Source of the DNA: Yuukianura sp. NJ FZ-2021
Taxonomy: Eukaryota
Assembly: GCA_046563655.1 (NCBI GenBank)
Contig: CM102289.1
Location: 2,170,001-2,234,000, forward strand
Length of the DNA stretch: 64,000 nucleotides
Direction of reading: 5' to 3'
This document shows, in pieces, positions 13,437 to 49,964 of the stretch. A model generated the notes under the pieces. The model was not told the DNA's origin and did not search any database. It saw only the letters and a list, made by a program, of their open reading frames with translations. The first letter of the stretch is position 1. The number at the start of each line of letters is the position of its first letter. Position numbers and translations under genes: made by a program.

Positions 13437-14015
13437 CTAAATGAAGAACTTACCAGAGTCGCATTTGGCAACTGAAGAAAGTCCAGTAGAAAATCGGTGA
13501 TTGAATCCTATTCTCGCAAGATCCTTGAGGTCACTTTCATTTTCATTGGTGATTTTGACAGAGTGTCCTCTGCAGTTCATTTTTTCGTAAAGAATGATAC
13601 ATTGACTACTGCGCACAATCGACGTCGTAGTTTTGTCCCATCCAAAAGCTACGATGTTGTTGCATCCCGGGTACAAACTCAGGCCAAAACTATTGCCTTC
13701 GAATTCTTTCGCGGAAAATAAAAATATCCTCGGAATCGTGGTCACTGCATCACCTAATACGTTTCCAGCAATAAAATAATTTAAAGCCGTGAAATTTGTT
13801 TTACGTACAAAATGGGATCAGCGTTACAAGTGTTGAGTTTAGGTCTCATTGCGCATGCTCAGGCTTTATTTTTACAAGTTGAATTATAAATGCTTAGATA
13901 ATTGCCATCATACTATAATTGCAAGTGAAGTGCAACAGGAAAAGTGCTTACCAAATTTACCAAGACTGGCGAAAACTAGGAGAAATGAAAGGGTAACAAT
14001 GTGGTTGAAAGCCAT
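13437..14015 (-). CDS. Small secreted beta/gamma-crystallin-like (I36-type fold) protein; exons 14015-13952 and 13753-13437
   Basis: Signal exon MAFNHIVTLSFLLVFASLGKF G|gtaagc joins in phase 1 to DAVTTIPRIFLFSAKEFEG...GCNN...WDKTTTSI...CIILYEKMNCRG...LSSVAKC. Greek-key-like F/Y-x4-F/C-x-G motifs are present. Confidence 0.68.
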
Positions 14016-16452: not shown

Positions 16453-18824
16453 CTACTGTTCTTCGGGTGCGTTAAATGTAGGATCTACTGACCAATCAGA
16501 GAATCCAGAAGATCCAATCAACCATGGCCAATAAATAAGTTGAAACACGATAAACATTACTAAATACAACGGTACTAAAAACCGCTCGATTCTGCGCCCT
16601 AGCTCAACTCCGCGTAACGACTTGAAACTGCTCCACAGCTTCACCTGAACGACTTCGGAATCTACCATTACCGAATTCAGCATTTGTTGCTTTTCACGAA
16701 GTTCAATCTCATTGCCACCCTAAAAGTTAATATTTTGTATTAAAATTTAAAAAAAACACTTTTTGCTTTTGAAAAATTTTGGAAAAAGTAAATTCTCACA
16801 TTTCCTTTTTCGGTTCCTGCTTTTTCCTCTTCTTCCTTCGTTAACCCAAACCTTTTAAAATATTTTCAAAAACTTTTTTTAACGGAAAATGAATAAATTT
16901 ATGGAAACACACAAAAATTAAATACGTGAAACCTCATGCTAAAGTACTTCACAAGCTAAAAAGAGTGGTAAATTTGTTAGACATACCAAATGAGAAGAGC
17001 GAATTCCAAGAGACACAGAAAGACAAATATGACGCATGCGATCATCCAAATGTCAATGCCCTTGACATAACTGACAATCGGTGAGCTCTCACTACAGAAA
17101 TTTTTTTCAAAATTTCATTAGACATGTTTTTTTCAAAAACACAAAGACAGCACGGTAATGGTAAAAACTGACCGTACGGATGCAAACATAGCTGAAACGG
17201 AAGAAAAGTTCAAAAAATATTAGACTTACAGAAATTCTGATTTTGAATTAGCATTGCATAGTAAAAAATAACGTGGCGGGAAAACATTTAGGCTTGATGT
17301 ATGTAACCTGTAAGTGTGAGGAGCGTCGTCATTGTAATTCCAATACGACATTCTACCATGTTCGGTGGAATGAAAAAACATAGCCATGTGATTGCAATGA
17401 AAAATACGCTGGGAACGTACGTTTGTATTAAATGATAACTCATTTTTCTTCTTGCTTTGACGCTGAATGACAAGACGTAGAATGTATCATCTGCGTCAAA
17501 AATATTTCGAAAGTTAAACCGTTCAAATTTTAGCACATTTTATGATAAGCCTACTTACTTTTTTTGGGTGGTGGTTTTCCATCGGATGAACCGAAGATGT
17601 CAAATGCTATTTGCTGGGGATCAAAATCCAAACTATCTTCAACCAAAAGTTCAACTTTGGGCTCCGTTACTTGAATTTCAAAATTTGTATTTTGTCGGTC
17701 GTAAACATACAAACTTGGTTTCGGTTCTCCCCACTCTAACTCCAGTTCAGTCGCAACAAAGGAGTCTGTTAAAGGTCAAAGGTCAAAGGTCAATGACCTC
17801 AGTAATGTTTTTGGTTAGATTTTAACATATTTTTGTGCATTTGAATTGAAAGATTCCTTACAGCTTCGAATTCTAAACGGGCATTCTTGACTGTCGGCCG
17901 GGTAAAAGTGAAAATCCATGCCACAGCTCAAGGTCACAGAAATGCGGCTCTGAAGAATCAAAGTTCCGTCGGATTTGTAAACAAGTTTTATTGGTTTGCC
18001 TATAAACTCCGGGCGGGAAGTTTCAATCAAGCTTTCTAAAATTTTGAAAGAAAAAAAAATCCGTTTCAGCGACTTACTATGTTTAGTTTTGTAGAAACTA
18101 AAAATTTGAAAGAATTTTACCCATAAACAAATCTGGTTTCCAAATTTTTGCTAGGAAACTTGGATCAAGTTTTTTGCTTTTTGTTTCAGGCGTTTCGTCC
18201 AAAGAAATTACAAATCCTTCTCCTGAAGGATTAATCACTTCTTGATTTGCTTTGGAAATTTGCCCGTCAGTCCACCACAACCGTACGTCCATCACAACGC
18301 TAATTTTCTACGTTACCGTCAGTTTCAACCAAATTTGACAAAATTTTTTAAGGATTTTAGTCTATTTTCAAATTTCTTACGCCGTCTAATTCATTCAAGT
18401 CTTGAATTTCCCGCACACGCACATGCACTGCGATGATGAGAGCTGATGGATTTAATCCGAAAATTTCAGCTGTGAACGAAAAAGGTGGAATTTAAGTCAA
18501 GCAAAATTAAACTGCGCATGTGCAAAACTCATCATTTCACTCACCTTCATTTGGAATTTCAAATTTGTTGTAATCTTCTGGCAAGTACAGCTCGCCTTTC
18601 CTCAAAGTCCGATTTTTCTTAGGAATTACTGCATCACTTCCATCTTCTTCTTCAGGTGGAAGGATATTACCCGCTTCAGTTGTTGACGTTCTCACCCTCT
18701 CAGTAGAAGTGGAGATAATCAAACTATTTACAATTTAAAAAAAGTTAAGGTCAAAGTGTGTTTAAAATATTCAATAACAAAAATGATCTTACACTAAGAC
18801 AAGCAAATATGATCTGCTAAACAT
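16453..18824 (-). CDS. Cys-loop ligand-gated ion channel subunit (GABA/Gly/pHCl-type architecture, divergent)
   Basis: Signal MFSRSYLLVLVLIISTS; IWKPDLF; Cys loop CGMDFHFYPADSQEC; M1 YHLIQTYVPS; M2 RIGITMTTLLTLTAMF; M3 VSYVKGIDIWMIACVIFVFLCLLEFA; M4 RFLVPLYLVMFIVFQLIYW. About 11 exons splice in phase. Confidence 0.92.
17773..17799. promoter_or_regulatory. Compound nuclear-receptor-type element (AGGTCA DR1-DR1 plus perfect IR1)
   Basis: AGGTCA-a-AGGTCA-a-AGGTCA-a-TGACCT inside a short intron of the channel gene. Function is unproven. Confidence 0.35.
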
Positions 18825-19715: not shown

Positions 19716-22700
19716 TTAATTAAAAAATTTTTTGGGGTAATTCTTGGTGTCACGTTTTGTTGATCAAAATTACGTCAAATGTAAACATACCACACAAACA
19801 GCTTCAGTGAAAAATTATTATCGTCACGGTATAAATAATGAAGGACTTGCTAACGTTTTTTTTTACTTTGAATATTTTATTTCCAATTTACACAACAAAT
19901 TCAATCCGAAAATCAAATATCTTTGAAATTCACAACAGCAATGGACAGCATATGTGCCTTAAACATTTTTAATTTTTGTCATCGTATTTGAAGCAATATC
20001 AGATCTGTACACTGTGAGCATTTTTTTCAACAAAAAGACTAATAAATCGGTCATATTTTCAAAATTATACGTCATATTTTCAAAATTTCAAAATATAAGG
20101 TTTTTACAACTTTACAAAAGACTGACTTGAGCTCGAAAGTTTCTAACACTCAAATGTACATTGAAATGCTCGAGAGTGCTAAGAGTGCTGTTTGAAATTG
20201 CTATTGGATAACACATAAGAGCAAGGTAAAACACTCAATTGTAGAGAAAAGCCTTTTGCACTAAAGAAAAACTGTAGTTTGTACAGTCCGGATGACTGAT
20301 GTGATTATGCTATGTATAAAAACTTGAGAATATGTAACTTGTTCTTGATAGACGGAGGTCAGAGGTCAAGTGCCGCTGCTTAGCGAAATCGTTCATAACC
20401 ACATTGGACTCCAATGTGCTCCGTAGGTTGTCTGAAAGCTCTGGATTTTGGTGATTCATCCAACCAAAAATTGTCTTCATATGCAACATTAGAAAACGTA
20501 GCTCCGCAGAGCTTTTTGCTCTTCTTCTGCACAGAGAAGCAAAAGAAAAAAATGAGTTTAAATATCCACATTAGATTTCTATTTTTAAATAGATTTTAAC
20601 TCGACATTTAATTAAGTTTTTCATCTTTTTTAACTACCTACAAATGTTTTTTCCCTTACCAATGGTTTCCTGTTGGATTCTTTTGTATGGAAAATGGATT
20701 TCCAGTGCTTTCGGCAGTATTCTGAGCCATTTCGAAGCAAAGAGGCCACTCCCGATGCACTGCCCATGATGCTGGAAATACTTTAAGTGGAGCTTTAGTG
20801 AAAGAAACTCAAAGTGTTTGTGCAGAGGTGTCTAAATTATTCAAAAATGGACTTGCGATAGATTAAAATAAGGGCTGAAAAGAGTTTCTACTAGTTTGAT
20901 TTTGAAATCTTGCAGTTAAATTCAAGTTCAACTTGAGGAATAGCTAAGCGATAGTGCTTTTTTTTTTTACAACACTCTGAATGTTTACAGTTCTACTTGC
21001 AATGACTGATAAATTTGTGCTAGATAAGCAATTCATAAAAACATTATAACTGCGTTAATGCTCAAGTACTTTCATCATTAATTCGCATTGTGTTTTAACT
21101 ACTAACAAATAATTTGAATTTCGCGTAGGTCAGGAAGTAATAAACAAAACTTTTTTATGAGTTTAGTTTGATTCGAATTTTTCAGTTTCAAAAACTCTCT
21201 ACCTAAATTTTGAAATTTTTGAACCTCCTTATGCAGTCAAAGGAAATTTTACACGACAAGAACCAAATAAATTTGAAAATTAAACAAAATAGAGGATTTT
21301 TATTAGGTACTGTGAATGACGCCATGCATTTTGTTATTCAATTTCAAAATCAAGTCTAGAGATGTGCAATCAAAAAATATGACACTTTGGAATGTCTTTT
21401 AAAATTTGTTTCTTGTATAAACAATAAACACTGGTCTTTATGACTAGACTTCTACTTTCGTTTGGAATCTCGTAACACGGCGGAAAGCGAATTTCAAAAT
21501 TGTCTTTTTGTCACTCGATGCTTCTGAAATCCGATGACAAACGGCTGGTTGAGATGAATATGCTAACCAACGCATCAAAATGACCATCCAGAGGTCAAAT
21601 GTCACCATTTTCCATTTGTCCTTCTTGCAAGCAATTACAAATCAATGACTCAGCGGTTCAGTTTAAATCTAACGTCCGAATTCAGTTTGGACTCAGTTTC
21701 TAAAGTCTTGTTGACATCTTCGGTCCAGTTTCCGTCCAAAATAAAATGGACACAAATTCGCCCCAGGCAGGATCAAGCGGACAAGTAACCTTACCTGCAC
21801 ATGTTGTAAGCCACAAACACGCAAAATATAAATACAGCGAACGTCGTTGTACTTAAAATTTGCAAAAACAAAACTAAAAAGCAACATACTAAAAATTAAT
21901 TTTAACTTTTGCATAAAATTTATAAAGCCGGATCCAATTCGTGCTGGAGCAAAGTATCTGAAAGCAATTAAGGCCTACCGCTTAGACCATTTCAAAGAAT
22001 GTGTTGTCCTGTTGAACGAATGAGGGGTTACAGCCTGTGCAACCCACCCTTAAGTCAACCAGAAGTTCATCTCCGTCTCTCTCGTCAGTCTCCGTCAGTC
22101 AGTCGGATTCCCCCCTCCAACACATCAACATCTCTGCCTGGTTCCTTTTTCTTTCAATTAAAACTTAATTCTAAATTAAAACTTAAACTTAAAACTAAAC
22201 TTTAAATAAACGGAGTATCAACTCCTTTCCCGAGCATCACCATCATCAGTTGTTCCTGCCTTTTGTTTCCTTGAGCTTTCCATTAGCTCTCAGAGTGGTG
22301 GACGATCTTCGACGCGAACAAAGGGACCGGAAGCAACTGCCAACGACCTCTCCACTGACCTTCATTGCCGGATTCAAGCAGTAACCGTCGCCGTTCAGCG
22401 AATATCGGTAAAGTAAATCATCTGATTTTTGAAATGTAGGCATTGTAGCCTGTAATTCGCCTCGTACGATTGCTGCCCCTCCCCCCTCTATCCGTTTTAT
22501 CCCGTTTTGCAGGTCAGAGGTCACGCCAGTGGCGTGGAGCTCAGTTGGTAGAGCAGTTTAGCGTTTTTTTCTGGTAAAGCAAGTTAGTTTTGGTGGATTA
22601 CGGTGGTTTATTGAGTCCCTACGAGCATCATTTCATTTGTCCTTGCCCCACCTTCCCGTTTTCCCCATTTTTAGGCAGTTTTGAGGTCAGTTTGACCCCG

Positions 22701-23149
22701 AATCATCGATTTTTAGCCACAAAAGAGGGAAAATTCAAGATGGTGGCTGGGACGCGTGGAAGGAAGGAAGCCGTCATGGACGCTCAGAGGTGGTGAGGAG
22801 GTTGAAGGAGTCAACCCCTCCTTCAGTATACACGCTAGCTGCGGATCTCCCTCTTCTTTCCCTCTTTTCCCCTCTTTTCAGCAGCGTCTCCTCTAACCAT
22901 CACGAAACACCACTACTTTTGCAATTGCAATTGCAAAATTGCAAAACGCAGTTGCACTACAGCAACGCCTGTTCCCTTGTACCCCACACTCCTATCCTTC
23001 AGTTCCTTTTAACAATTTCTTTTTTTGCAGGACGAAACTACAAAACCCTAATTAATTACAAAGTTTGGGAAATCTGATTTCACAATTATTGGTTCTTTTG
23101 CTAAAATCTTTTCTTTTGAGTTTCAGTTAATTCGATTTGATTTCCTGAG

Positions 23150-24511
23150 ATGAGTCAGCAGCCTATCTACGCAAATTCACCCAAGATGAGCTCAAATAAT
23201 CTACGTACCCCGGATGGAAGACCCATTTGCAATTTTTGCAGATTTCCTGGCCATATCAAGAGAACCTGCCCCCGCTACAGAAATCGACACCGATCTACGC
23301 AAGGAATCATGCCTGTCCCATTGATGTCTCTTCAATTCGACGCTACGCCTAGTCCAAATCAACGCCAAATTCCACTATCCAGAAGCCCGTCATGTTCTTC
23401 CTGTGGATTAGAAGATTCCCTAGCCCCGATTCTTTCCGGAATTTTGCAGATGCTGCAGGAAATCATTCGTCGTTTGCCAGCAGCAGCTCCCGATTCCCCC
23501 CAATCCACAGGAACCCCATCGAAGTCGACTTGTTCCACCCAAACCGACCACGCTCCATCGCCACCTCAAGTTGAAACTCCGTCACCTCCGATTACTCCAG
23601 AACTTCCAGAGCCTGTGATCATCCCTCCTGTCCTAAATTCGGTACCTAATCCTAACCCTATTTATGTCAGTTTGAGAGACCCCGAATCCGTTTTTGTCCC
23701 CCCTACTCCAGTCGCCATGCCCGTTCTCCCAGTTACAGGCATCTTTCCTCTTTCTCACACTTTAGGTGATCGACGTAAGATTTTCCGCCTCGGAGATATT
23801 CCTGAGAGCTGGATGAGGGAGAAGGAATGGGAGATTGCCATGGTCTACCACGAACTTGACTTCTACACTCCAATCTTCGGCAGTCTTTTGATCAATGACA
23901 TAGACCCTCCTCTCCAAAAGTATTTCCTTTCCCATGTTGATCACGGACTCCAAGTTCTTGAGAAGTTGAAGCTCCTAGATGACTTCCGTGACTCCTTGCC
24001 TAGTTTCCTTGATTGGGAAGCGCTAATGGTTCAGCGTGGATTGCCTTGCCCCGCCCGATTTAGTGACCCGGAGCCTCCAGCCCCACGTCATGATGCCATT
24101 GTACTTTCTGCACTCTCCTGTGACAAGTCCGGTTTGGTCACGGAACAAGTTCAACTTCCCCGTTTTCGCCTTTTCCAGAACTTTCGCTTCAAGAAAGACG
24201 TGACACCGAAGAAGCCCTCCTTTTCACTTGGATCAAACCCATCGAAGTTTGTTCGTTTGGCAAAACAGTACCTGGACTTCCATTTTCCCGCCAAAGTTTA
24301 CCCAGATCGAGGCCAGGATATTGTTGACCTTTTGGACCCCCAACTCCAGATCTACTTTACCCTTGGATGTGAAACCGAAGAAACTGTTCGTCGCCGTCTT
24401 CTTCTCCTGAACAGTTTCCGCCGTTCCCTTCCCAATTTTTTAGATTGGAAATCCATGATGGTCACTGAAGAATTGCCTTGCCCTCCTCCTCGCCCTGGAT
24501 TTGGTATGTAA
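23150..24511 (+). CDS. 453-aa LTR-element protein: N-terminal CCHC zinc knuckle, Pro-rich linker, duplicated unknown domain
   Basis: RTPDGRPICNFCRFPGHIKRTC (C-x2-C-x4-H-x4-C) and two copies of LDF..P...DP.LQ.YF....L.LL..FR.SLP.FLDW...MV...LPCP. Confidence 0.85.
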   Translation: MSQQPIYANSPKMSSNNLRTPDGRPICNFCRFPGHIKRTCPRYRNRHRSTQGIMPVPLMSLQFDATPSPNQRQIPLSRSPSCSSCGLEDSLAPILSGILQMLQEIIRRLPAAAPDSPQSTGTPSKSTCSTQTDHAPSPPQVETPSPPITPELPEPVIIPPVLNSVPNPNPIYVSLRDPESVFVPPTPVAMPVLPVTGIFPLSHTLGDRRKIFRLGDIPESWMREKEWEIAMVYHELDFYTPIFGSLLINDIDPPLQKYFLSHVDHGLQVLEKLKLLDDFRDSLPSFLDWEALMVQRGLPCPARFSDPEPPAPRHDAIVLSALSCDKSGLVTEQVQLPRFRLFQNFRFKKDVTPKKPSFSLGSNPSKFVRLAKQYLDFHFPAKVYPDRGQDIVDLLDPQLQIYFTLGCETEETVRRRLLLLNSFRRSLPNFLDWKSMMVTEELPCPPPRPGFGM

Positions 24512-24559
24512 GTTTCTTCAGTCCTCCCCGAATTTGGTAAGGGTATTGTGTCTTTGAAA

Positions 24560-24750
24560 TTGGGGTGAAATATGCCTCTGGTTTTGTGGTTGGTTTAATT
24601 GAAGTGAAACATGCTTCTGTTTTTGTCTTTTGATTCGTATTGAGGTGAAACATGCTTCTTATTTTGTCTTTTGTCTTTGCATTGCGGTGAAATATGCTGC
24701 TGGATTTACTTTGGTGTCTATTGGGGTGAAACATGCCTCTGGATTTGATT
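24560..24750. repeat. ~40-bp imperfect tandem repeat x5 in the 3' untranslated region of the LTR element
   Basis: Core gtgaaa(c/t)atgc(c/t)tctg recurs at about 24566, 24604, 24645, 24688 and 24726. Confidence 0.8.
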
Positions 24751-26443
24751 TTTGTGGTTTTGTGTATTTTTGGCCTTGATTTTTTGTGTATTTTGGTATT
24801 TTGTGCACTGATTTTTGATTGAATTTTGTGATTTTGCCTATATGGTTCCCCGTCCCCCCCCCCCTAATCATTTGATTTCCCAGGTTTTTAGGAGACATAG
24901 GCCTGCAGGAGATCGACGTCGCGCGCACCCCATGGATTGATACTTTGATGACTACTTTGGACACTTTTACTGGTTCTTAAACACTCTTATTGATTTATGT
25001 ACATATACTTAATACAATTTTTCCTAACCTTATCTTTCTTCCTCTTTAGAGATGTTGATTCCCTAAATTGGTTCCCTTACCCTCCATTTTGAGCCTTAGA
25101 CGAGCATTTTTCCTAAATTCTTCCCATACCCGTTTTACCCCCCGATTAGGCATAACAAATTTGCTAAATTTTCAGCCCTGAATTCGGTTTAATGTTTTCT
25201 CGTGTTTTCAGTTTCCCTCCCCGCTTTTTCCCCACCATTTTTGTTCTATTTTCAGTGATTGGACACCATTCGGCACCATTTTCAAAATTTTTCAAAATTG
25301 ACGCTCGGTCCATCTCACCCACTTGTACCCCTTGGTTTTTTCGAGCCGGGACGGCTCTGGGCTCGGCGGCGGGGTCATGAGGGGTTACAGCCTGTGCAAC
25401 CCACCCTTAAGTCAACCAGAAGTTCATCTCCGTCTCTCTCGTCAGTCTCCGTCAGTCAGTCGGATTCCCCCCTCCAACACATCAACATCTCTGCCTGGTT
25501 CCTTTTTCTTTCAATTAAAACTTAATTCTAAATTAAAACTTAAACTTAAAACTAAACTTTAAATAAACGGAGTATCAACTCCTTTCCCGAGCATCACCAT
25601 CATCAGTTGTTCCTGCCTTTTGTTTCCTTGAGCTTTCCATTAGCTCTCACGAAGCTGCGGACCTTGACAATTCCGACAACCAAATTACCGACTTCCTTCA
25701 AGTCAAAATTATTTCAATAGTTACTTAAGAATCACTTTTCAATTTGAAATTTTTTTTTTATGTTTGATGATTGTTGCAGAAAGTGAACCACTTGATTTAT
25801 TTCTTGGTCGAATCTCGGACCCATTTTTCAAAGCGGCATTACATTAGTGCCAAAAAGAACATAAAATTTTGCAAGCGGATTGTTGATGTAATACCTTTTC
25901 CAAACGTAAGTCTGGAAACACAACGTTTCTAAAAATACATATTGACATGCGCTTATCAATGACAGTGCCAAAGTCAATTCACTACGGTATTATTTCATAA
26001 CTTAACTAATTTTATTTTATTTTTGACGTCAGAAACACTTAGAGGGAAGGTTGGAGCTTAAACTGTCGCTGATTGCATTCAGAAGTGGGAAAACGTCGGA
26101 CTCTTTCAAGCACGTCACCAAAGCACTGGATTTGTATCCCACGTACGTCAATGGACTTCTGCACAGAGCTCATCTTCATAAACTCAACAAGAATTGGGAG
26201 TCAACGCTTCAAGATCTGGAGGCAAGCATTTTCAAAATTTTTAAACCTTGGGTATGGGGGAGACATTGCTGACTCCAGATTTTTAATTAATTAAATTAAA
26301 TTAATTAAAAGTAATTTATATTTGGAGTCATCAATGCCCCTCCATACTTAGAAATTCCAAGAAAAAATACAGTAATCGTTACAAAAACAAAATTTGTTAA
26401 TGTTTTTGTAAATTGTATTACAGAAGGCAAGGGACAATGATTC

Positions 26444-28903
26444 TCACCTGACGAAGAAACCGTACCAGGTTTGGATCGCGGAAGCCAAATTCCAAGTCAG
26501 GCGCAAGCGTAAATGACTTCTTGACGATTGCTCTCCAAATTTGACTACCCTAGTTTTATAATTACGGCAAGAAATTTGAGAAGCTAACTCCTTGGCGAAA
26601 GCGAAAATTGACACTCCAATTGCGAATAAAAACAAAATAAAAATCGTGCTGCATTTTTTAGTAAGCGCCAAAGGTACTGCCTTTCCCATTTCCCGCTGGA
26701 ATTCAATTTGTTCCTTTTGAAACGTTAATTTTCCATGGTAAATTCTTAGTGTTTCCCAGTAGTGCAGAAATCCACCGGTAGAAAGTGCATCTACATTGGG
26801 TTTGATGTAGAGGTTGTCATAGTCTTCCTCCAGAAGAGCTATAAAGTACTGTTTAGTTCCAAATCGAAAGTGCTCCATTTCCTTTTGTTTTGTGTTGCCT
26901 GTGTAATAAGCAGTATTCTTCGTATTGTTTTTTGTAGTGCGTTTGAAACGCTTTACAAAAATGTCCTCCGTTGGCATGGCGTACACCGTCTTGTTACATT
27001 CGGCTAGTTCATCAAGAAGAAATGCATTTGGATGCGGGTGGTCCCTATCGAACTGGTCCAGAAATAACTCCGCCTTCGAATTGAAATCTGGATCGCTTAT
27101 ATCTGGCATTTGCTGGAGTGAGCAATTGTAGTTATACCCCGTTGCCGCTCTTACTACTGGACTAAACTGATTAAAAACGGCATATTTCTCAGCTATTTTT
27201 TGAGTTGATAGATGAGGATTGGTCTGTATGGACACTAAGAATTGTTCATTAAGTTGAAAATTGATAATGGGGTTGAAGCGGGCCGATTTCGGCACGCTAC
27301 TGTTGTACCAGTTGCATTTTTCTGTGTATATAAATATAACTGGGACTTTGTACTTGTTAAGAATTGAGAAATTTGCGTTGACGACCTCGGCAAATGTTTC
27401 AAGGCCTCGCCATGGGGGAGCCAAGGTGAGTTCGGAAATGAGTGCTCCCTTGTAGCGATTGGCCAAAAATAGACTTATTATGATTAATGGAGTGGCAATA
27501 AAGAGGTAGTACTTGCTTGTACGTAACGTTTTGGACACCGTAGGAGGAATTTCTATGAGTAAAGCAAAAATTATAAACCAGGGTTTATCCTGAGTTTTTA
27601 ACTTCCAAATTATAATCCAAAAGGAACCGAAAGCGGCACAAACCGTTGCCAAAATTGTCGCCCACAGAGTTGCGCTGAAACCTTTGACGTACATTGCATA
27701 AGAATCTTCAGATTTGTAGTGCCCGTCACACGTTATGAAGTTATACTCATTCTGGTATGTACTTGGGAGCATCGTAAGTGTTATTGGTAGCCTACCTTTT
27801 GCTGTGTATACTACGTTCCCGTTATACATCCTTGTAAAAAACATATTGTGTTCCATCATGGAAGCTGGCATGTCTCGATAAAGCACGACATTTACCTCTG
27901 TTGCAATTTCGTTTCCTTTAGAAGTAAGCAAAAGAAATGGTTCCTGACAAGATTTATTTCCTTGTATGAATATCGTAGTCTTAAACTCCATTGATTCTTC
28001 AAGTATGTACGACGTTTTATATTTTCCCACAGACAAGAAATGTATTAATAAGTACGCAAAATAAATGTTTGAAAGATGGAGGTCTTTGGGATTCAGTAAG
28101 GCAGATGGTGCAGGCGCTAATGTAACGCAATGGCGTCCAACCCCTTGCTCTGTTGTAGACATGAGTTCAAACATTTTAGTGTTGTTTGTAAAGTAAGTTG
28201 TGATCTCACCCAACCAAATATCATGAATTCCAGGTACGGTAAGACGAGACAGTTCTCTAAAAGCTATAAACGTTTTTCTGTACATAAGTTTTGTAAGCTC
28301 TACTTCTACTTTACCGTTTTGATTCACTCCAACTTTGATTACAGTACAACGACATGCGCTTCTTAATTCGTAATATACTCTTTCAGTAACTTTTTGTTCT
28401 GAAATTCCAACTAAAAAACTGGATTGAGTTTTGAACAAAAGATTGTACCAGGTTACCTCGGCGTCATTTCGCAGTCTATTCCGGCCATCTAGTTTAGCAC
28501 TGTACAAATTTGAATATTTTTCCAAGTTTTTCCTGAATGTGAAAACGTGTTCCATTTTAAAACTTTCTACGTTGTCAAATCCACAGTATATGAAAGCCAT
28601 ACATTTGAATTTTAGTTTCATGGTGTTGTTAACGTCCGAATTTGAAAATCCTTGCACAGTCGGTTTAGTATCTGCACTCAAAGCTATTGGGAATTCAAGT
28701 GAAGCGTTGAATTGACAAATTCCCTGACGGTCGTTCCTTGCAGCGTTTATTATGACAAAATCTATCCAACAGTTATTGAAAAATGTCAAAATTTGTGTCT
28801 GAACTTCGTGGGAACTTATTTGAAACGTGGTGGAAATGTAGCGAATGGATAAAAATAAAATTAGACTAAAAATAGTTCTGGGTTGGCAAATCGGAAAATT
28901 CAT
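26444..28903 (-). CDS. Divergent ionotropic-receptor-like (variant iGluR) membrane protein, intronless
   Basis: 819-aa ORF with signal peptide, long ectodomain, YNFITCDG, pre-M1 KGFSATLW, M1, pore-like LLIE, M3 NRYKGALISELT, S2-like LETFAEV..NFSI, and a final TM. Confidence 0.75.
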   Translation of the reverse strand: MNFPICQPRTIFSLILFLSIRYISTTFQISSHEVQTQILTFFNNCWIDFVIINAARNDRQGICQFNASLEFPIALSADTKPTVQGFSNSDVNNTMKLKFKCMAFIYCGFDNVESFKMEHVFTFRKNLEKYSNLYSAKLDGRNRLRNDAEVTWYNLLFKTQSSFLVGISEQKVTERVYYELRSACRCTVIKVGVNQNGKVEVELTKLMYRKTFIAFRELSRLTVPGIHDIWLGEITTYFTNNTKMFELMSTTEQGVGRHCVTLAPAPSALLNPKDLHLSNIYFAYLLIHFLSVGKYKTSYILEESMEFKTTIFIQGNKSCQEPFLLLTSKGNEIATEVNVVLYRDMPASMMEHNMFFTRMYNGNVVYTAKGRLPITLTMLPSTYQNEYNFITCDGHYKSEDSYAMYVKGFSATLWATILATVCAAFGSFWIIIWKLKTQDKPWFIIFALLIEIPPTVSKTLRTSKYYLFIATPLIIISLFLANRYKGALISELTLAPPWRGLETFAEVVNANFSILNKYKVPVIFIYTEKCNWYNSSVPKSARFNPIINFQLNEQFLVSIQTNPHLSTQKIAEKYAVFNQFSPVVRAATGYNYNCSLQQMPDISDPDFNSKAELFLDQFDRDHPHPNAFLLDELAECNKTVYAMPTEDIFVKRFKRTTKNNTKNTAYYTGNTKQKEMEHFRFGTKQYFIALLEEDYDNLYIKPNVDALSTGGFLHYWETLRIYHGKLTFQKEQIEFQREMGKAVPLALTKKCSTIFILFLFAIGVSIFAFAKELASQISCRNYKTRVVKFGEQSSRSHLRLRLTWNLASAIQTWYGFFVR

Positions 28904-29693
28904 TTTTCCAGAACAATTTTTGGATGTACTCGGCTAAAGGCCAGTTTAGCTTCTCTCGAGTTAGGTTTCTTAAAAATGCTTTTCTTGAAATTTAATGATT
29001 ATTAAAATAATTTATTCATATTTAAAAATTTTCTGAAAGGTCAGGCATCAAAGAATAGCCAAACCTTAAATATTTAATAACCCGTCCATATCTTAGGCCA
29101 AGTTGTTTTTAATAGATATTCAAATGGAATAGTTGAAATAAACTTACTTACTCAACAGGTAGGCAGCGGAAACTTATCTTACGCTAAACTCTAAAGAAAA
29201 ATGGATTTATCTTGAAGTTACTAACAATGTGCAACAATGTTCGAGCTATGCGTCAAAATTTACAATTTGTCAATTTGCTCAACTGAAAGTGCTTGGAACG
29301 GGAATGACGTCGCTGGGCAAAACATTAATAATTAAGTTTTAAAGTGTTGCCGTATAATTAAATAGTAAACGAATTCTACTCATTAAATTTTTATCTTTCG
29401 CGTGTCTTACCAAAGAAAATTAAACTTTCTTCTTTTGACTGACAAAGCATGACTTTTATCAGTTCAAATTCGGTTTTAGAATCATAAAAGTATTTCTAAT
29501 CGTACATAAGGGTGTTTCTTTTATATAAATGCAATTTTTTTCAAGTTTATATGTTGTATTTTAGCTGAAGATATGGTTAAGCATAGTAAAAGTAGGAAAC
29601 GTTTTATCAAAGCCAGCCACATATGCCTATTGTTTTAAGAATTTTTATTTTATTAGATTTTTGCAGGTTATAAAAAAATCCTTTGCACACTAA

Positions 29694-32162
29694 TTATGAA
29701 TTTTGTATTTGAATCTTAGTTGACAAAAATTCTTGTCTTGAAATAACAATGACGTTTATCAGTGTCTTTGAGTTCAAATATTGACTTATCCTACACGAAA
29801 TTTTACCATATACCAACTCCTTGCCTGCCACCAAAACTGACATCGCCATTCCAATAGCAAACAGAAGAAAAATAGTGCCAAATTTTCGGGTTAGCTTCAT
29901 AGGTGCTACTTTCGACATTTCGTGCTGAAATTGACTTTCTTCCGCACGAAATGTGATTTTTCCATGGTACGTTCTAAGTTCTTCCCAGTAGTGCAGAAAT
30001 CCACCGGTAGAGAGCGCATCTACATTAGGTTTGATGTAGAGGTTGTCATAGTCTTCTTCCAGAAGGGCTATCAAGTACTGTCTACTTCCAAAGTTAAATA
30101 ATTCCATTTCTTTTTTCTTTGTATTTCCGACGTATGCAGCCTTTCTGCTTTCATTTTTCAAACCATTTTTAAAATGTGGTAAAAAAGTATCCTCCGTTGG
30201 TAGAGCGTACGCTGTTTTATCACATTGCGCAAGTTCAGCAGAAATAAGGTCATTGGGATGCGGCCTATTGAAATTTTTCATAAATGAGTCGATGTCTTGT
30301 ATGGATTTCATTTTCTCCATCAATGGTTGTGAACAGTTGTAAGGACCATGCGGTATTCGGATTTGACGTAAAAGTTGACTCAGCAATGCAAGTTTCTCTG
30401 CAATTTGGTTGCTATTTAGGTTAGAGTGATAGATTGAATCATTCAGTGGAAGTATTAGTTCAAATGAAGGCTGTAATGACGCTAGTGTTGTGAATATACT
30501 TGAATTCCAGTTGCACTTCCTGGCGTACAACGCGAGAGATGGGAAGTTGTATTTACTCAGAATTGAGTAATTTGCGTTGAGTACTTCATGGAAAGTCTCA
30601 TGTCCTTTCCAAGTCGGTGCCAATGACAGTCGAGCTGTCAGGCTACCTCGGTATCCATTGGATACAATCAGACTAAAAAGAATTAGCGGAAAAGCTACCA
30701 GGTAGTAGTGGCTGCTCTGAGTCAGTTTTATGGACACTTTGGGAGAAATTTCAAGTAGAGATCCAAAAATTATGAGCCATGGGGTATCTGTTGCGTTCCG
30801 CTTCCAAATGATAGCCCAGGTTAGAACGTACGTGGTACAAATTGTTAAAGTAATTACACCCCACAAGTTTGCGTCAAAACTTTTAACGTACATTTCATAA
30901 GAGTTCTCTGATTCATACCTGCCGTCACAAGTTACAAAGTTGTAGCCGTCTTCATAAGTACTTGGTATAACAGTAACGGTAAGAGGCATTGTAGTTTTAA
31001 CATTTTCTGCTGCGCTCAATGCCACAGACGTAAAATTGTGCACATTTAGTAACTGATACGAATATTCACGAGCAGTCATATCACGATAGAGTATGGTATT
31101 CGCTTCCGTTGAAACTTTGTCCCCTTCTGCCGAATACTGCATGAATTCCTTCAAACAGGATTTGTTTCCTTGTATCAATGATTTTAGAAACGAATCCATC
31201 GGAACTGCATATATATAAGAAGTTTTATATTTACCGCTAGACAGAAAATTTATGAACAAGTATGCGAAATGGTATTTTTCAAATTGAAGTTCCATAGGGT
31301 CTAGAAATATAAAAGGAGGCGGTGCGGATGTTACGCAGTGACGCCCAATACCCAAATCATTCATCGACGCAACTTTGAAAACTTTTGTGTTGTTGGTAAA
31401 GTAGCTTTTGAGTTTTTCAAACCAAATGTTCTGAATAGCCTGGACACTCGTAAGAGCCAAATGTCTGAAAACGCTAAAGTATTTTCCGTACATGAGTTTC
31501 GTAATTTCGAGTTCAGCGGTATCGTTGCTATTCAATCCGACCTGTATTACGGTACATCGGCATTGGATATGGATGTACGGAAAAAAGGTTCTACGAGACA
31601 CGTTTTGTTCAGCGACTCCAACTACGAAGCTGTTTTGAGTTTTGAACAATCGATTGTACCACAGAAGATGTTCGTTTCTTTCTGACCGGTCTCCATTGTT
31701 TAAATTTGCGTACCTTTTCACACTTTGGTTGAAATGGACACCGATTTCTCGACTTTGACTTTCCGTATTATCAAATCCACAGAAGATGAAAGCGAGACAT
31801 TTGAATTTCAGTTGCAATGTTTGATTTACCTCCAAATTTGAAAATCCGCGCCTTCCTGGCGTTGATCCTAAGGTCAACACTATTGGAATATCCAGTGAAG
31901 CATTGACCTGACACAGGCCAAGGCGGTCATTTCTTGCAGGATTTATCATGACAAATTCCGTCCAACAGTCACCGAAGAATGTCAAAATTTGTATTTGAAT
32001 TTGGTCAGAACTCATCGTAACTGTAAATGAAGTGAGAGAAATAAAAAAAGCTAACATGATTACAGAAACAACATTGGTATGATAAGCGACGGCTATTCTT
32101 TTTGCACACTTTGCCACTGGAGTTTGATTTATTACACAAAAACCCGACTTGTACGGATGCAT
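29694..32162 (-). CDS. Divergent ionotropic-receptor-like protein, intronless
   Basis: 822-aa ORF paralogous to 26444-28903. The true start may be the second Met, before the hydrophobic stretch. Confidence 0.75.
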   Translation of the reverse strand: MHPYKSGFCVINQTPVAKCAKRIAVAYHTNVVSVIMLAFFISLTSFTVTMSSDQIQIQILTFFGDCWTEFVMINPARNDRLGLCQVNASLDIPIVLTLGSTPGRRGFSNLEVNQTLQLKFKCLAFIFCGFDNTESQSREIGVHFNQSVKRYANLNNGDRSERNEHLLWYNRLFKTQNSFVVGVAEQNVSRRTFFPYIHIQCRCTVIQVGLNSNDTAELEITKLMYGKYFSVFRHLALTSVQAIQNIWFEKLKSYFTNNTKVFKVASMNDLGIGRHCVTSAPPPFIFLDPMELQFEKYHFAYLFINFLSSGKYKTSYIYAVPMDSFLKSLIQGNKSCLKEFMQYSAEGDKVSTEANTILYRDMTAREYSYQLLNVHNFTSVALSAAENVKTTMPLTVTVIPSTYEDGYNFVTCDGRYESENSYEMYVKSFDANLWGVITLTICTTYVLTWAIIWKRNATDTPWLIIFGSLLEISPKVSIKLTQSSHYYLVAFPLILFSLIVSNGYRGSLTARLSLAPTWKGHETFHEVLNANYSILSKYNFPSLALYARKCNWNSSIFTTLASLQPSFELILPLNDSIYHSNLNSNQIAEKLALLSQLLRQIRIPHGPYNCSQPLMEKMKSIQDIDSFMKNFNRPHPNDLISAELAQCDKTAYALPTEDTFLPHFKNGLKNESRKAAYVGNTKKKEMELFNFGSRQYLIALLEEDYDNLYIKPNVDALSTGGFLHYWEELRTYHGKITFRAEESQFQHEMSKVAPMKLTRKFGTIFLLFAIGMAMSVLVAGKELVYGKISCRISQYLNSKTLINVIVISRQEFLSTKIQIQNS

Positions 32163-32859
32163 TTAAATTAAAAAGTTATCGAAAAACGAGGGTTATTGTT
32201 GATATAACAAATTTATTTGCGTCCAATTTTTATTTTCTGTTGGTGAAGCCAATGACTTTTTTGCTGCTACCACAGAAGAATGTCTTACAATGACGGATTT
32301 TTACTAATTATGCTCCTCCTTGCCAAATACCAATATTGACATGGCAAGTCCCGCAAGAAACAAAAGAAAAATGGTTTGGGTAATTTTTGATTAAGTTCCA
32401 GCGGGATTACTTATCTATTTGCTAATGCTAATTGCATTCAGAACTAGGAAAACGGCTTTCTCTTTTAGTCACGTAACAAAAACACTGTGTTTTTGCACCA
32501 ATTATGCCAAAGGACTTGTGCGTTGAGCTTATTTTAACTAAACTAGCTAAATTAGCTTTTAACTACTAAACTTAACTAAAACTAAACAAGAATTGTGTCT
32601 GCTTTCAGCATAATACGCCGATATATGTTCCATTTTCATAGTCTAACGTTACAGTAAGGGTAAAAAATTATTTCGTTTTCGCGTTTTGAAAATTCTTGTT
32701 TTATTTCAATTTAACATGGAACAAGGTCAGTTAAACTCAAAGTTAATTCTACTTCCTAACTTTAATTTAATAGATGATTTTTTGTTCTTTTGAAATACTA
32801 ATAACTTTGATGTCTGAACTTAAACAGTGACACATACCACATGTAATTTATTTACCTGC

Positions 32860-35305
32860 CTAAATTTTTAAACTGCGTATTGCCAAATAATGGTTTTTCA
32901 TAAGTACATTCCAGCTCTTCTTTTTTACCCTAACTTGTTTCTTGATGTGGAAAGGCATAACCTTTGTAGTTCGGCTGAAACAGTAGCGTAAAAAAGTCAA
33001 TATTGTTTGAAATGGAAAGTCTCTAGCTGCTACAAAAGAAGACAAAGCCACTCCTACCAAATACAAAACAAATATGGTAGCACACTTTCTAGTTAGACGT
33101 AAAGGAACTGGCTGCGCCATTTCCCGCTGAAATTCAAATTCTTTTTTTTACAAAATTCAGTTTCCCATTGTAAATTCTTAGTGTTTCCCAGTAATGTAGA
33201 AATCCACCGGTAGAGAGCGCATCTACATTGGATTTTATGTAGATGTTGTCGTAGTCTTCCTCCAGCAAAGCTATCAAGTACTGTTTTCTTCCAAAGTTAA
33301 AGGCTTCCATTTCTTTCCTTTTTGTGTTACCGTAGTAAGCAACGTTTCCGTTTTTCACAATGTTGTGGAAATTTGAGAGAAACGTGGCCTCTGTTGGCAA
33401 TGCGTACACGGTTTTGTTACATTCCGCAAGTTCAGCATTTATAAAATCATTGGGATGTGCCCTGTCGAAGTTTTCCACAAATTTCGTCGCAGCATGCACA
33501 GAATTTAATTCCACATCCATTGGTGGTGAACAGTTGAAAAGAACCTGTGGCAACCGGAGTTGACGTTTAAGTTGATTCCACATGCTACGTTGCTCTGCAA
33601 CTTTGTTCGTTAACATAGATTGACGGATTGATTCATCCAGTCGAAATATTATTTCAAAAACGGGCTCAACTGTTTTTAGGGCTGACAACGTTGGGGAACT
33701 CCAGTTGCACATGTTGGTGTACACAGCAAGAGCAGGTAGCTCAAGTCTATTGAGAATTGAGAAATTTGAGTTCAGCACGTCGTCAAAAGTTTCAAGTCCT
33801 TTCATTGGCGGGGCCAATGACAGTCGAGCGGTCAGGCTACCTCGGTAGCCCGTAGCTAATATTAGACTACAAAGTATGAGAGGCAATGCTACAAACCAGT
33901 AGTGTTTGCTTTTTGCAAGTTTTTCAGAAAGTTTAGGACAAATTTCAAGCAGATATCTTAAAATTATTAGCCATGGGGTATCTGTTCCGTTTAGCTTTCG
34001 AATAATTCCCCAGATGAAAACGTACGCGGTACAAATTGTGAAAGTAATTACTCCCCACAAATCTGAGCCAAAACTCTTTATGTACATTTCATAAGAATTC
34101 TCTGATTCATATCTACCGTCACAACTTACAAAGTTAAAATCATTTGCAAAAGTACTTGGAATGACTGTAACGGATAGAGGCATTGTAGTTTTAATAAATT
34201 CCATTGCACTCATTTCCACAGATATAAATTGGTATACAAAGTCTAGCATAGTTGGGTAATCATAAAAAGATATATCGCGATGTAACAAGGTATTCGACTC
34301 TGTTAAAAGTTCGTTTCCTTCTGCCGAATACGCAAAGAATTCCTTCAAACAGGATTTGTTTCCATGTGCCAGTAGATTTAGATGCGAGTCCGCTGAAAAT
34401 GCATATACATAAGAGGTTTTATATTTACCAGTAGACAGAAAATTAATGAGTAAGTATGAGAAATGGATTTTTTCAAATTGAAGTTCCATCGGGTCCAAAA
34501 ATATAAATGGAGACGGCGCGGATGACACACAGTGGCGCCCAACACCCTGATTATTCACGGACAACAGTTTAAAAATTTTTGTATTGTTGATAAAGTAGTT
34601 TTTGAGTTTTTGAAGCCAAATACTCTGAATACCCTGGACACTTGTAACAGCCAAATTTCTGAAAACGGTAAAGTGTTTTCTGTACATTAGTTTCATAATT
34701 TCGAGCTCAACGGTACCGTTTCGATTCAATCCCACTTGGATTACGGTACAGCGGCATTGCATCGGAATGTAGAGAAAAAAACTTGGACGGCACACGGTTT
34801 GTTCAGCGATTCCAACGATGAAACTGTTTTGAGTTTTGAACAATCGTTTGTACCATAGGAGTTCTTGGCTTCTTTCTGCCGTACCTTGCGACCTGTCTTC
34901 ACTGATCAAATTTGTGTACCGTTTCACAGTTTCTTTTAACTCGACACGAATTTTTTCGGTTTGACCTTTCGTATTATCAATGCCACAAAAAACAATAGCG
35001 AGACATTTGAATTTTAGTTGCAATGTTTGATTTACCTCCAAATTTGAAAATCCGCGCCTTTCTGGAGTTCCTCCTAAAGTCAAAACTAGTGGAGTATCCA
35101 GTGAAGGATCGACTTGGCACAGGCCAAAACGGTCATGTCCTTCAGGACTCAAAATGACAAATTCAGTCCAGCAGTCACCGAAAAATGTCAAAATCTGTAT
35201 ATGAATTTTGTGAGAACTTATTGCAAATGCAGTAAAAGTGGAGCAAGTGGATAAAATTAAAATTAAACTAGAAATAACTTTGGTTTGATGTACTACAAAA
35301 ATCAT
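32860..35305 (-). pseudogene. Ionotropic-receptor-like gene with one frameshift in a T8 run (~33142-33149) before the last TM
   Basis: The 723-aa ORF continues in another frame as MAQPVPLRLTRKCATIFVLYLVG. Removing one base restores KKEFEFQREM. Confidence 0.7.
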
Positions 35306-36068
35306 TTTGTCGAAGCAAATTTTTGCATGTAGTCGATTTTACACTAACTTAGGTTTACTCGTGCTAGATTTTTTAAAAATACTTTTGTGGAAATTACATT
35401 AATATAAAAGTGTTCATTGAAGTGATATTAAAAAAATTCCTAAAACAAAATGCTTCAAAAAAACAGCCTACCATAAATATTTAATAACCCATTGGCCTCC
35501 TATGTCAAGGTGTTTTTAATGGATCCACAAATGGGATAATTAGAATAAACTTTCTTAGTCCAAAACAATGCTCCACGTTCATTTTATTACATATCGACAA
35601 ACCTGAAAGACAAAAAACTTAAAAATGTTTTTTTTTTGAAATTTAAGGTTATTTTTTTTCGAAGTTACTTACAATGTGCAACTACATATGAGCCACGCCT
35701 CAAAATTTGTATTACATTTGTCATAATTTGCACAACAAAAAATGGTTCGAATGGGCTTGGCGCTGACGGTCAAAACATTAATCATTTTAGTTTTAAAGTG
35801 CTGTCGTCTAATTAAATAGTCAATTCTAGTTATTAACTTTTTATATTTCGTGTGTCTTGCCCATTGCCTAAAACCATTCAACTTTCTTCTTCTCACTGAC
35901 AAAAACTCTGGGTTTTATATGTTGAAACCGAACTTTAGAATCACGAACGCTTTTCTGAAAGTACACATAACGATGTTCTCCACGTTCATTTTACCACAAA
36001 GTTATGAAAGGAATTTAAATTACTCCTGACACTAATTCTGAATTTAAATCTAAGTTGACAAAAAATAT

Positions 36069-38511: not shown

Positions 38512-38860
38512 ATCAATTCATACTTATGGGAGAATGAGCGTTGTTGACCAAAACAGATTCAAATGCTATTAATTTTATAAATTTTGCTTAGTGAAAACAA
38601 ATGACTTTTGTGTTGCTGCCAAAGAAGTAAATCTTACACTGAACAATTTTACATAAAGCCAGCATCTTTTGGCGGAATACCAATATTGACACGACAATTC
38701 CCACAAGAAACAGAAGAAAATTGGTTTAGCATTTTTTAGTAAGCCCCAAGGCGATTACTTTTCCATTCCGCGCTGAAACTCAATTTCTTAATTTTGAAAT
38801 GTAATTTTTCATACTTATTGGAGTATGAACGGTTGATGACCAAAGCAGATTAAAGTGCGA

Positions 38861-41434: not shown

Positions 41435-42305
41435 GGTTTTCTGTTTTGGTCAGATTGAGTGAAGCTATTTATGAAAAGGAATGTTAGAACTGAGGCAAAA
41501 CTATACATTTCATTATCTAAAATTTTCTTGCATGACTTGTAGTAGCAAAATATTGCATGAATCATTCACTACGCTTACAACACCTACAAAGCATTTCTTT
41601 TCTATAAAACACTAAATGAAAAAACTTGCAGACAGTTTTACACAATTAGTTCTTAAATGCAAATGTCATAAATTCTAATTTACACAAACTTGGCGTGATA
41701 TCGTGCAAAGCAATGCTGAAGGAGACTATAAATTTTTTTAGAGACTCCGGTTTCGTAGTCCGTGTATGTTTTGGTTTTGGTTGCCAATAACAACTTGATA
41801 TATAAAAAGATATTTTTTATTTTGCATTTTCCTTAGCAGGGCTTTAAGGTATTATACTTTAACAATAATTAATTGAATTTAAAATTATAACTTTCAGTGC
41901 TAATTTTTGTATAGTACGCGCTGGTTTGTCTTTTTTTTTTTTGACATATTTCTTGTCCATTTTCTTCTGCTTCTGTTTGATTTCCAAATGTGGTTAAAAA
42001 TTGTTAAAATCGTAGTTGCTTCTGGGCCATTTAAGAACGTTATATACGAAAAAAATATAAACGTTAAGGCGTAGACTGAATCTGTATTCCTGAATACAGT
42101 ACACTTGTTTGCTCTAAGCAACTATAACGAGTATAGGATTACATACAAAATTAGATAAGAACGAAAGTAGCGTACCGGTTTCTATAACACAGTTCAGTGC
42201 TCCATAGGGCAGTGCCAATGTAGTAGAACCTTAAAAAGTTTGCAACTTTATCCCAAATCTTCACTTCAACTCAAATCTATGGTTCATGTAGAGTTGTAGC
42301 GTCTT

Positions 42306-49200: not shown

Positions 49201-49964
49201 AAGGAATTTTTACCATCCAAGATGCAACCACCGGCAAGTACGTGGGAATTTCAAACGGAAAATTGAGGGCCTATCTTGGGTCAAATCTCCTAGCAACCAA
49301 GTTCGAATTGGTATATATTCCTGGCGGAGGCGCAATTAAGTCGACCATAAACAATCTGTACGTGAACGCTGACCCAGCTGGAGTATCCGGGTTATCACCG
49401 AACCGACAAGTTCCACTGGCGCATGAAACGTTCCGTTGGACGATGGTTACCGGTGGATACCAATTGAAATCAATGGCCAGCAGCCTTATGGTCTACTCGG
49501 GTCCGAATGGAGAACTTTGGAACAATGCAACTACAGCTAGAACGTACCGCCTCACAGCAACAACACTAACTAAACCAACTGTACCGGCACAAGGAAAGTT
49601 ACAGAGCGTCCAATCCACTAAATTCGTTGTAGCGACAGCCCAAAATACAACACTTCAAGCTATTGGAGCAACTAGCAGTGCTGGAACAACATTTCGGTTT
49701 GAGCAAGTGGCTGATACAGATTCATATTCAATCTGGAGTACTGTTACTGGATTGGCGGTTACCGCGGATCCAAATGGAAATACTCCTTTGAGAGCAACCA
49801 AACCTGTTGCCAGCTCGTGGGAACGCTTCAGAATTGTTGCAGACAATGGGCAATTCATTTTCATTAGTGAGTCATCTGGACTAGCGGTAACAGTCAGATC
49901 AGATGGAATACTTTTGAACAATGATTCTACAACGGGCAATGCAGCACGTTGGAACATCGTTTGA
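46250..49964 (+). CDS. Secreted GH81 endo-beta-1,3-glucanase with C-terminal fascin-like beta-trefoil repeats, copy 1 (9 exons)
   Basis: Signal MSPLLVLFCLPALLLQSTSG; motifs [60 protein letters not shown]; tail repeats with HETF/WERF. Exons 46250-46313, 46459-46581, 46664-46700, 46769-47106, 47209-47512, 47657-48071, 48189-48298, 48419-48945, 49033-49964. AATAAA near 50010. Confidence 0.92.

Follow-up and report, generated by a model that had tools for sequence, protein, structure and literature searches.

Positions 22021–25649 of a 64,000-nucleotide stretch of Yuukianura sp. NJ FZ-2021 DNA (contig CM102289.1, positions 2,170,001 to 2,234,000 of the forward strand; hereafter the window, numbered from its first letter) are a recently integrated, structurally intact long terminal repeat (LTR) retrotransposon that lacks pol. 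The element belongs to a family with many diverged copies in related genomes, and its single open reading frame (ORF) encodes a protein that begins, judging by homology, with a Gag nucleocapsid knuckle and continues into a linker and a duplicated domain of orphan sequence. We put at about even the chance that this protein derives from gag, binds RNA, is maintained by selection and assists a satellite element in entering the particles of a helper.

A young insertion with identical LTRs and a diverged empty site

The element measures 3629 bp in total and is bounded by a 5' LTR (22021–22292) and a 3' LTR (25378–25649) on the plus strand, each of 272 bp and 100% identical to the other (272/272) in both a repeat-finder run and a BLASTN comparison of the element with the window. 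The repeat finder reported a 273-nt direct repeat (22020–22292 and 25377–25649), in which the extra nucleotide is a flanking A that matches by chance. Each LTR starts with TG and ends with CA, has an imperfect terminal inverted repeat (5/6) and contains no ATG. The target-site duplication, CGAA, lies directly outside the LTRs on the plus strand at 22017–22020 (left) and 25650–25653 (right). The element has a G+C content of 0.42–0.47 versus 0.33–0.39 in its surroundings, and the BLASTN comparison found no second copy within the 64-kb window.

Five public sequencing runs match parts of the internal region, four of them from one sample of an organism A and one from an organism B. Logan contigs of four runs (X1, X2, X4, and X5) were aligned to a 5.7-kb stretch (21000–26700) divided into 30 depth bins; individual details were visible for 32 of about 1000 pieces, 24 of 185 loose ends, 12 of 176 indels and 40 of 877 substitutions, and the statements below on listed items refer to these subsets. 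Contigs in X1 (n = 1) and X4 (7825 nt long) represent the empty site, joining 22015 directly to 25649 and thereby skipping 3633 bases, that is, the 3629-base element plus 4. Five letters at this joint can be assigned to either side, and CGAA is present there as a single copy. In a contig from X5, position 22020 is connected to 25681 through 27 diverged letters. The identical LTRs and intact CGAA duplication described in a first-pass annotation of the window are therefore confirmed and supplemented by a bridged empty site. The empty-site contigs differ from the window flanks by about 9% (93 other letters over 21000–22015) and so represent a divergent haplotype, strain or species; taken together with the complete identity of the LTRs, this divergence makes the insertion much younger than that split.

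A separate observation concerns the organism A contigs that cover the flanks (21000–22015 and 25649–26700), which are about 4–16% off the window, whereas certain pieces of the element from these runs match it at 99–100% identity (for example, 171 nt with 1 difference and 167 nt with 0). X5 also carries two versions of 26141–26700, one with 2 differences in 560 and the other about 9% diverged. Very divergent haplotypes, or recent activity of the element across lineages, are possible explanations of the contrast between flank and element identity.

A single long ORF and no enzymatic domains

The ORF runs from 23150 to 24511 on the plus strand (stop codon included) and encodes 453 aa; it is the sole plus-strand ORF of at least 80 aa with an ATG start (two are listed when both strands are counted). 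The longest ATG ORF in each of 500 shuffles of the internal region averaged 95 aa and reached a maximum of 217 aa, compared with the uninterrupted 453 aa of the element. An in-frame TGA (23138–23140, plus strand) stands three codons before the start codon.

No Pfam family matched the whole ORF at E values up to 10. Likewise, no retroelement family, including those of protease, reverse transcriptase (RT), ribonuclease H (RNase H), integrase and capsid, matched any of the 56 six-frame pieces of at least 35 aa at E values up to 1; that scan, in which the rescan of the piece holding the whole ORF covered its first 86 residues, returned three unrelated weak matches (E 0.057–0.69). A tblastn search of the element with 15 Gag or knuckle proteins was significant at the knuckle only and revealed no capsid remnant in the leader. 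The lack of enzymes and of a recognizable capsid, as first annotated, thus holds for the ORF and for all six-frame pieces. The missing functions would have to be supplied in trans by an autonomous element and, as the element cannot move alone, mobilization in trans is the only reading that fits its fresh insertion.

The ORF begins with a Gag-type nucleocapsid knuckle

A CCHC knuckle (C-X2-C-X4-H-X4-C) occupies residues 27–40 of the ORF (23228–23269) and is embedded in a Gag-type nucleocapsid segment, residues 18–53 (23201–23308, plus strand). Searched exhaustively with phmmer against 1.84 billion representative proteins, the ORF gave seven matches at E ≤ 0.001 and none at 1e-10. All seven are zinc-knuckle proteins with their best stretches inside ORF residues 4–70, and two of them carry a Retrotrans_gag domain upstream of the knuckle, one with an additional weak match to a Ty3 capsid.

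For comparison, a Gag family, A1, was built from one protein (P0002) and its relatives (nine proteins at E ≤ 1e-5; 11 sequences aligned). Its members carry the motif R-T-x-D-G-x-P-I-C and the CCHC knuckle at the C-terminal end, behind the capsid domain. Residues 18–53 of the ORF align with A1 columns 336–371 of 387 in hhalign (probability 98.4%, E 7.5e-15, 56% identity) and retain 10 of the 10 invariant residues of the A1 knuckle segment (R T D G C C P G H C); no other part of the whole ORF aligns with A1 in the same comparison. The resemblance ends there: the A1 proteins have a Retrotrans_gag capsid before the knuckle and terminate 30–65 residues past it, whereas the ORF continues for 400 residues. 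In BLASTP, the ORF region shares 26/57 identities with the protein P0005 (E 2e-14), and the similarity starts three codons before Met1. It follows that the beginning of the ORF is the counterpart of the spacer that separates capsid and nucleocapsid in Gag proteins, which indicates that the capsid part has been lost and that the present leader stands in its place. On the strength of these alignments, the knuckle of the ORF is genuinely of the Gag nucleocapsid kind, located at the N-terminus instead of behind a capsid. The first-pass annotation had singled out its position, shortly after an in-frame stop codon, as unconventional, and the A1 relatives substantiate that view.

A linker and an old tandem duplication make up the rest of the protein

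Behind the knuckle, a linker rich in Pro, Ser, and Thr (together 42% of residues 71–200; 23360–23749) leads into two tandem copies of a domain that is predicted to be helical, repeat A (residues 199–301, 23744–24052) and repeat B (residues 345–445, 24182–24484; delimited by BLASTP and an alignment, A2), all on the plus strand. The repeats share 35/106 identities in BLASTP (33%, E 5e-17). At codon positions 1, 2, and 3, they are identical at 51/109, 61/109, and 32/109 sites (47%, 56%, and 29%; pS, for synonymous differences, 0.78 and pN, for nonsynonymous ones, 0.50), in a protein-guided alignment that by its nature favors positions 1 and 2. Third positions are saturated while the proteins are still alike; thus, the duplication is old and both copies have stayed coding. 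The first-pass annotation had overlooked this duplication, as it had the precedents (TR-GAG elements and Bs1-type chimeras) and the possible capture from a host mRNA that are considered in the Discussion.

Searches for relatives of this part of the protein were uniformly negative. A word-indexed protein search with the ORF produced 5564 candidates, all of them weaker than E 0.001, and the repeat domain had no relatives in the Pfam and phmmer searches. The ESM Atlas held no usable match to residues 196–453 or 340–453, a profile search of the PDB with the repeats gave a single match at E 1.3, and a scan of JGI metagenomes with six peptide patterns gave 216 pattern matches, of which 0 were confirmed. 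Compared with the Gag family profile in hhalign, the repeats reached a probability of 0.3%. By sequence, the linker and the duplicated domain, which make up about 85% of the protein, are orphans. The structure prediction that the first-pass annotation had proposed gave helical models, at low confidence: AlphaFold2 returned a predicted local distance difference test (pLDDT) score of 37.2 for residues 196–453 and 41.7 for repeat A when repeat B served as the alignment.

The leader is depleted of AUG codons

The leader (22293–23149, plus strand, 857 nt) is poor in AUG. Between the putative transcription start site and the start codon (22086–23149, 1064 nt), there are 3 ATG trinucleotides versus a mean of 9.2 in 1000 dinucleotide-preserving shuffles, of which 0.5% contained three or fewer; the reverse complement, CAT, occurs 16 times in the same interval. 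The 3' region, used as a control, shows no such depletion (11 ATG against 14.8 in shuffles). All three leader ATGs fall inside an interval that opens with GTAAAG (22409), which resembles a donor site, and closes with a T-rich, acceptor-like CAG (23030), so a leader spliced at these putative sites would carry none. The depletion suggests that translation of the ORF matters to the element.

Within the LTR, TCAGT occurs at 22085 and 22095, with a third, overlapping copy noted by eye at 22099, and TATAAA is absent. The cluster (22085–22103, plus strand) falls in a tandem repeat of a 10-nt unit (3.2 copies at 22070–22100 in Tandem Repeats Finder, TRF). Going by consensus sequences, we take the cluster to be a candidate TATA-less initiator and the AATAAA at 22205–22210 and 25562–25567 (plus strand) to be a putative polyadenylation signal. 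A candidate primer-binding site (PBS; 22296–22313, plus strand) begins with TGG 3 nt after the 5' LTR, in agreement with the first-pass annotation, and a G-rich run with two C (25365–25374, plus strand), located 3 nt before the 3' LTR, is a weak candidate for the polypurine tract (PPT).

Tandem repeats follow the stop codon at 24559–24836 on the plus strand (a 39-nt unit in 4.9 copies at 24559–24754 and a 32-nt unit in 2.9 copies at 24745–24836), and their number differs among copies of the element, as seen in contigs with joints from 24504 to 24634 and from 24617 to 24664 and in several indels. Predicted RNA folding did not go beyond that of shuffles for either the 39-nt array (z 0.95) or the first 268 nt of the leader (z 0.59). 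Rfam gave no window matches at gathering thresholds and four chance-level matches in the element (E 1.6–3.6) far below them, and a 26-nt LTR pattern had 0 matches in JGI metagenomes. As a side observation, leader positions 22525–22565 (plus strand) have a tRNA-like acceptor and D-arm, after which come seven T; a tRNA gene was rejected here, as ARAGORN made no call even at relaxed settings and Rfam had none.

Diverged copies in related genomes and signs of constraint

The four runs contributed 319, 436, 117, and 107 contigs on the aligned stretch, with every identity class represented; in X1, 81 contigs were at least 99% identical to the window, 95 were at 95–99%, 100 at 90–95%, and 43 below 90%. 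All 30 depth bins were covered in all four runs and hence in both organisms. Summed contig depth, which is not a copy number, was about 5–10 times higher over the element than over its flanks (200–450 versus about 44 in X4; 13–30 versus 3–5 in X5), and at least one contig has the start of the LTR behind an unlike flank (loose end at 22019 in X5, among the 24 listed). Among the pieces listed, the junctions along the coding region are bridged one after another: the passage from leader through ATG to knuckle by a contig over 23074–23244 with 1 difference, that from linker to repeat A by three pieces, the entry into repeat B from part of the spacer between the repeats by a piece over 24186–24399, and the end of the coding region, from repeat B past the stop codon to the tandem repeats on the 3' side, by one over 24278–24820. 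No high-depth breakpoint where capsid or pol would enter was seen among the listed loose ends. The many diverged contigs and the bridged junctions identify a multi-copy family. A one-off deletion, which the first-pass annotation had named as an outcome that would overturn its account, is accordingly not borne out.

Several features of these contigs bear on the protein. Ten of the 12 listed indels fall within the element and none of them in the ORF, which makes up 37.5% of its length (p 0.009). Six listed pieces inside the ORF have 103 substitutions and 4 gap letters, and three listed non-coding pieces outside the tandem repeats have 51 substitutions and 7 gap letters. Among the listed substitutions, 16 lie in the ORF, 7 synonymous and 9 nonsynonymous, for a crude dN/dS of about 0.4 in a weak test (p 0.06–0.18). 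Considering the old in-frame duplication, the AUG depletion and the scarcity of indels together with this weak test, the protein appears to be maintained by selection.

In a further observation, 45 bases around AATAAA in the LTR (25553–25597, equivalent to 22196–22240) are matched by contigs from X1, X2, and X5 that have 185–255 unlike letters on both sides. Such matches to the LTR segment alone point to a second repeat family that shares it, a candidate for a relative or for the LTR of a helper.

Genomic neighborhood

On the minus strand, 26444–41449 holds five tandem intronless paralogs of 696–862 codons (stop to stop), 47–66% identical to one another and with several hydrophobic segments. 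They match no Pfam family, one of them (b2) has no homologue in the word-indexed protein search, and their profile has no match in the PDB; they are a lineage-specific, expanded family of membrane proteins. The retrotransposon lies about 800 bp past the 3' end of the first paralog. Further along, on the plus strand, 46731–49961 and 52295–55696 are two tandem copies of a gene with the N- and C-terminal domains of glycoside hydrolase family 81 and, after them, DUF7910 and ricin-type lectin domains. In a genome that also contains a Cys-loop receptor exon, this gene is possibly a glucanase gained by horizontal transfer and later duplicated. Three exon-sized ORFs encode, respectively, the ligand-binding domain of a neurotransmitter-gated ion channel (Cys-loop receptor; 17818–18150, minus strand), a beta/gamma-crystallin domain (13440–13817, minus strand) and a diacylglycerol acyltransferase domain (57248–57655, plus strand). 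These domains mark the host as an animal.

Discussion

The reading that we favor is of a non-autonomous, multi-copy LTR family in an animal genome that would be mobilized in trans by an autonomous element. The satellite would have kept the parts that act in cis, namely its identical LTRs, a polyadenylation signal, the TGG-initiated candidate PBS and a G-rich tract. Its ORF would be a gag remnant, in which the spacer and CCHC knuckle now come first because the upstream capsid-coding part was lost, fused in frame to the Pro/Ser/Thr-rich linker and to two old tandem copies of a helical domain. The most likely role of the knuckle would be to bind the element's own RNA, and the repeat domain might multimerize or dock on the Gag of the helper, with the satellite RNA competing for helper particles. 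Judging from the knuckle relatives and the 4-bp duplication, the helper is probably Ty3/gypsy- or BEL/Pao-like. The most specific form of this proposal, an animal satellite retroelement with a "knuckle-first" adaptor whose knuckle holds its own RNA while the new helical domain docks into helper particles, we regard as unlikely.

Several results weigh against the proposal of a maintained, helper-dependent satellite. No RT or integrase family was found in the 64 window ORFs scanned (10 + 54, with ten minor overlapping ORFs of at least 90 aa inside 26000–41500 left aside), so the satellite-like element postulated by the first-pass annotation is supported in its youth, lack of pol, multiple copies and signs of constraint on the ORF but not by a helper in its vicinity. 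The idea in that annotation that the protein might hijack packaging or counter silencing is a conjecture. Among the cis signals, the candidate PBS has no tRNA match in Rfam at E values up to 5, and the window contains 0 tRNA genes; the PPT is poor and contains C. The Pfam zf-CCHC model does not match the knuckle in either the ORF or the six-frame pieces. With respect to the repeat domain, the low pLDDT leaves a docking or multimerizing role without support from the models, and the orphan status of the domain means little, as the neighboring host gene b2, one of five paralogs, is likewise without homologues: the host lineage is absent from the protein libraries. The case for selection is tempered by the weak dN/dS test and by the bias toward positions 1 and 2 in the codon-position comparison. 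Finally, no contig spans a whole copy of the element, so pol-bearing relatives that share segments with it are possible, and the contig evidence comes from 32 of about 1000 pieces and 12 of 176 indels.

The best-surviving alternative, which we nevertheless consider doubtful, is a chimera of the Bs1 type. In this case, template switching in a helper particle would have exchanged capsid and pol for pieces of at least one host mRNA; the repeat domain would be a captured host fragment joined accidentally to the gag knuckle, the hybrid would propagate as a pseudo-LTR element, and the protein would have no role in transposition, being either neutral or endowed with an activity derived from the host. 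Both the mechanism and its products are known from flies, mosquito, vertebrates, maize and yeast (PMC5131818). The ORF is intronless and its homology to Gag is confined to 36 columns, beyond which it ends abruptly, as a template switch might leave it; the old, constrained duplication could predate the capture, and a host parent would have escaped detection, because host genes of the lineage are absent from databases. However, no parent gene is known and no poly(A) remnant is present past the stop codon. The G+C content at third codon positions is 0.48–0.50 in the repeats, compared with 0.41–0.48 in the rest of the element and 0.36–0.41 in eight host coding stretches of the window, a weak argument against recent capture. 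The ORF shows few gaps even in diverged copies (5–14%), which points to its maintenance following any capture, and the AUG depletion of the leader suggests that translation matters to the element. Capture as the origin of the domain and a later role in transposition are compatible with each other.

Alternatively, the protein could be a complete but unconventional Gag, with nucleocapsid first and a capsid-like part second, in which the two helical repeats form the shell and only pol is needed in trans. Retroelement capsids are helical, and so, by prediction, is the C-terminal half of this protein, with two lobes behind the knuckle; there is also a weak local match between a capsid region of Gag (residues 197–262 of P0002) and repeat A (ORF residues 237–296; E 0.063 for a 3.6-kb database and 15 queries). 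Two lobes that are 33% identical are, by contrast, unlike the N- and C-lobes of a capsid. Moreover, the repeats are all but unrelated to the Gag profile (0.3%), match no Pfam capsid family and find nothing below E 1.3 in the PDB, and their models are too poor for a fold search. We consider such a Gag very improbable. Least credible of all, and close to being dismissed outright, is that an internal deletion in an autonomous element gave rise to this one copy, with an accidentally open frame and no family of its own: this would account for the single copy in the 64-kb window and the lack of a contig spanning a full copy, but contigs from two organisms cover 30/30 bins at several levels of divergence and bridge the same junctions, no high-depth loose end marks a deletion breakpoint among the 24 listed, and accident is unlikely to have produced two separate deletions that keep a frame of 453 aa open, a leader depleted of AUG and an old duplication that is in frame.

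Among described systems, TR-GAG elements and Bs1-type chimeras are best read as the closest to the satellite proposed here. TR-GAG elements are plant retrotransposons of less than 4 kb with a single Gag ORF, no pol and at least two copies per genome (PMC4350172). The present element (3629 bp) resembles them in its size, its LTRs, its putative PBS/PPT-type layout and its one gag-derived ORF, in the absence of protease, RT, RNase H and integrase, in its presumed mobilization in trans and probably in having several copies (one is in the window itself, and many diverged ones are in the contigs of related genomes). It differs in that its host is an animal and in that the TR-GAG ORF is a recognizable capsid with the zinc finger inside or behind it, whereas here the knuckle comes first and no capsid is detectable. 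Lacking the capsid similarity that defines them, the element is not filed as a TR-GAG; by analogy, it would work like one with a more reduced gag.

LTR chimeras in which the internal ORFs are replaced, hybrid proteins arise in frame and secondary retroposition proceeds as for non-autonomous elements have been described for maize Bs1 and for LTR-mediated retrocopies in animals (PMC5131818), and the present element shares with them the flanking LTRs, the replaced internal ORFs, the hybrid in-frame ORF and the non-autonomous spread. It differs from Bs1 in being a diverged family, with copies from less than 90% to more than 99% alike, and in having an ORF that looks maintained. The original work on maize Bs1 is reportedly that of Elrouby and Bureau. 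TelKA2n of bdelloid rotifers is likewise an animal non-autonomous family that has retained a different accessory ORF; besides an env-like ORF3, it has the N-terminal portion of gag (PMC5408684), whereas only the C-terminal end of gag survives here, and the remainder of the protein shows neither transmembrane nor env features. LARD and TRIM elements are also bounded by LTRs and dependent on a helper and have no coding capacity, in contrast to the long and apparently constrained ORF of the present element (PMC4350172).

Non-autonomous LTR elements whose ORF derives from gag are therefore a known kind, and the knuckle-first form is new. In the main texts of the open-access literature, we found no retroelement protein in which a nucleocapsid knuckle comes first and is joined to a duplicated non-capsid domain. 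Nearly all described non-autonomous cases are either non-coding (TRIM, LARD) or, as in TR-GAG, encode Gag in full; the majority come from plants. How the RNA of such elements enters helper particles is poorly understood, and a young element that keeps only the RNA-binding end of Gag together with a new, apparently constrained domain offers a simple system, one 453-aa protein and one 3.6-kb RNA, in which to ask whether a satellite needs an RNA-binding protein of its own. The element also bears on how new proteins arise from fragments of gag; should the domain have been captured from a host gene, it would be an animal example of a Bs1-like chimera that has turned into an established family. If the adaptor is real, it would amount to molecular piracy among retrotransposons, following a logic like that of satellite viruses and using an architecture that is undescribed for any retroelement.

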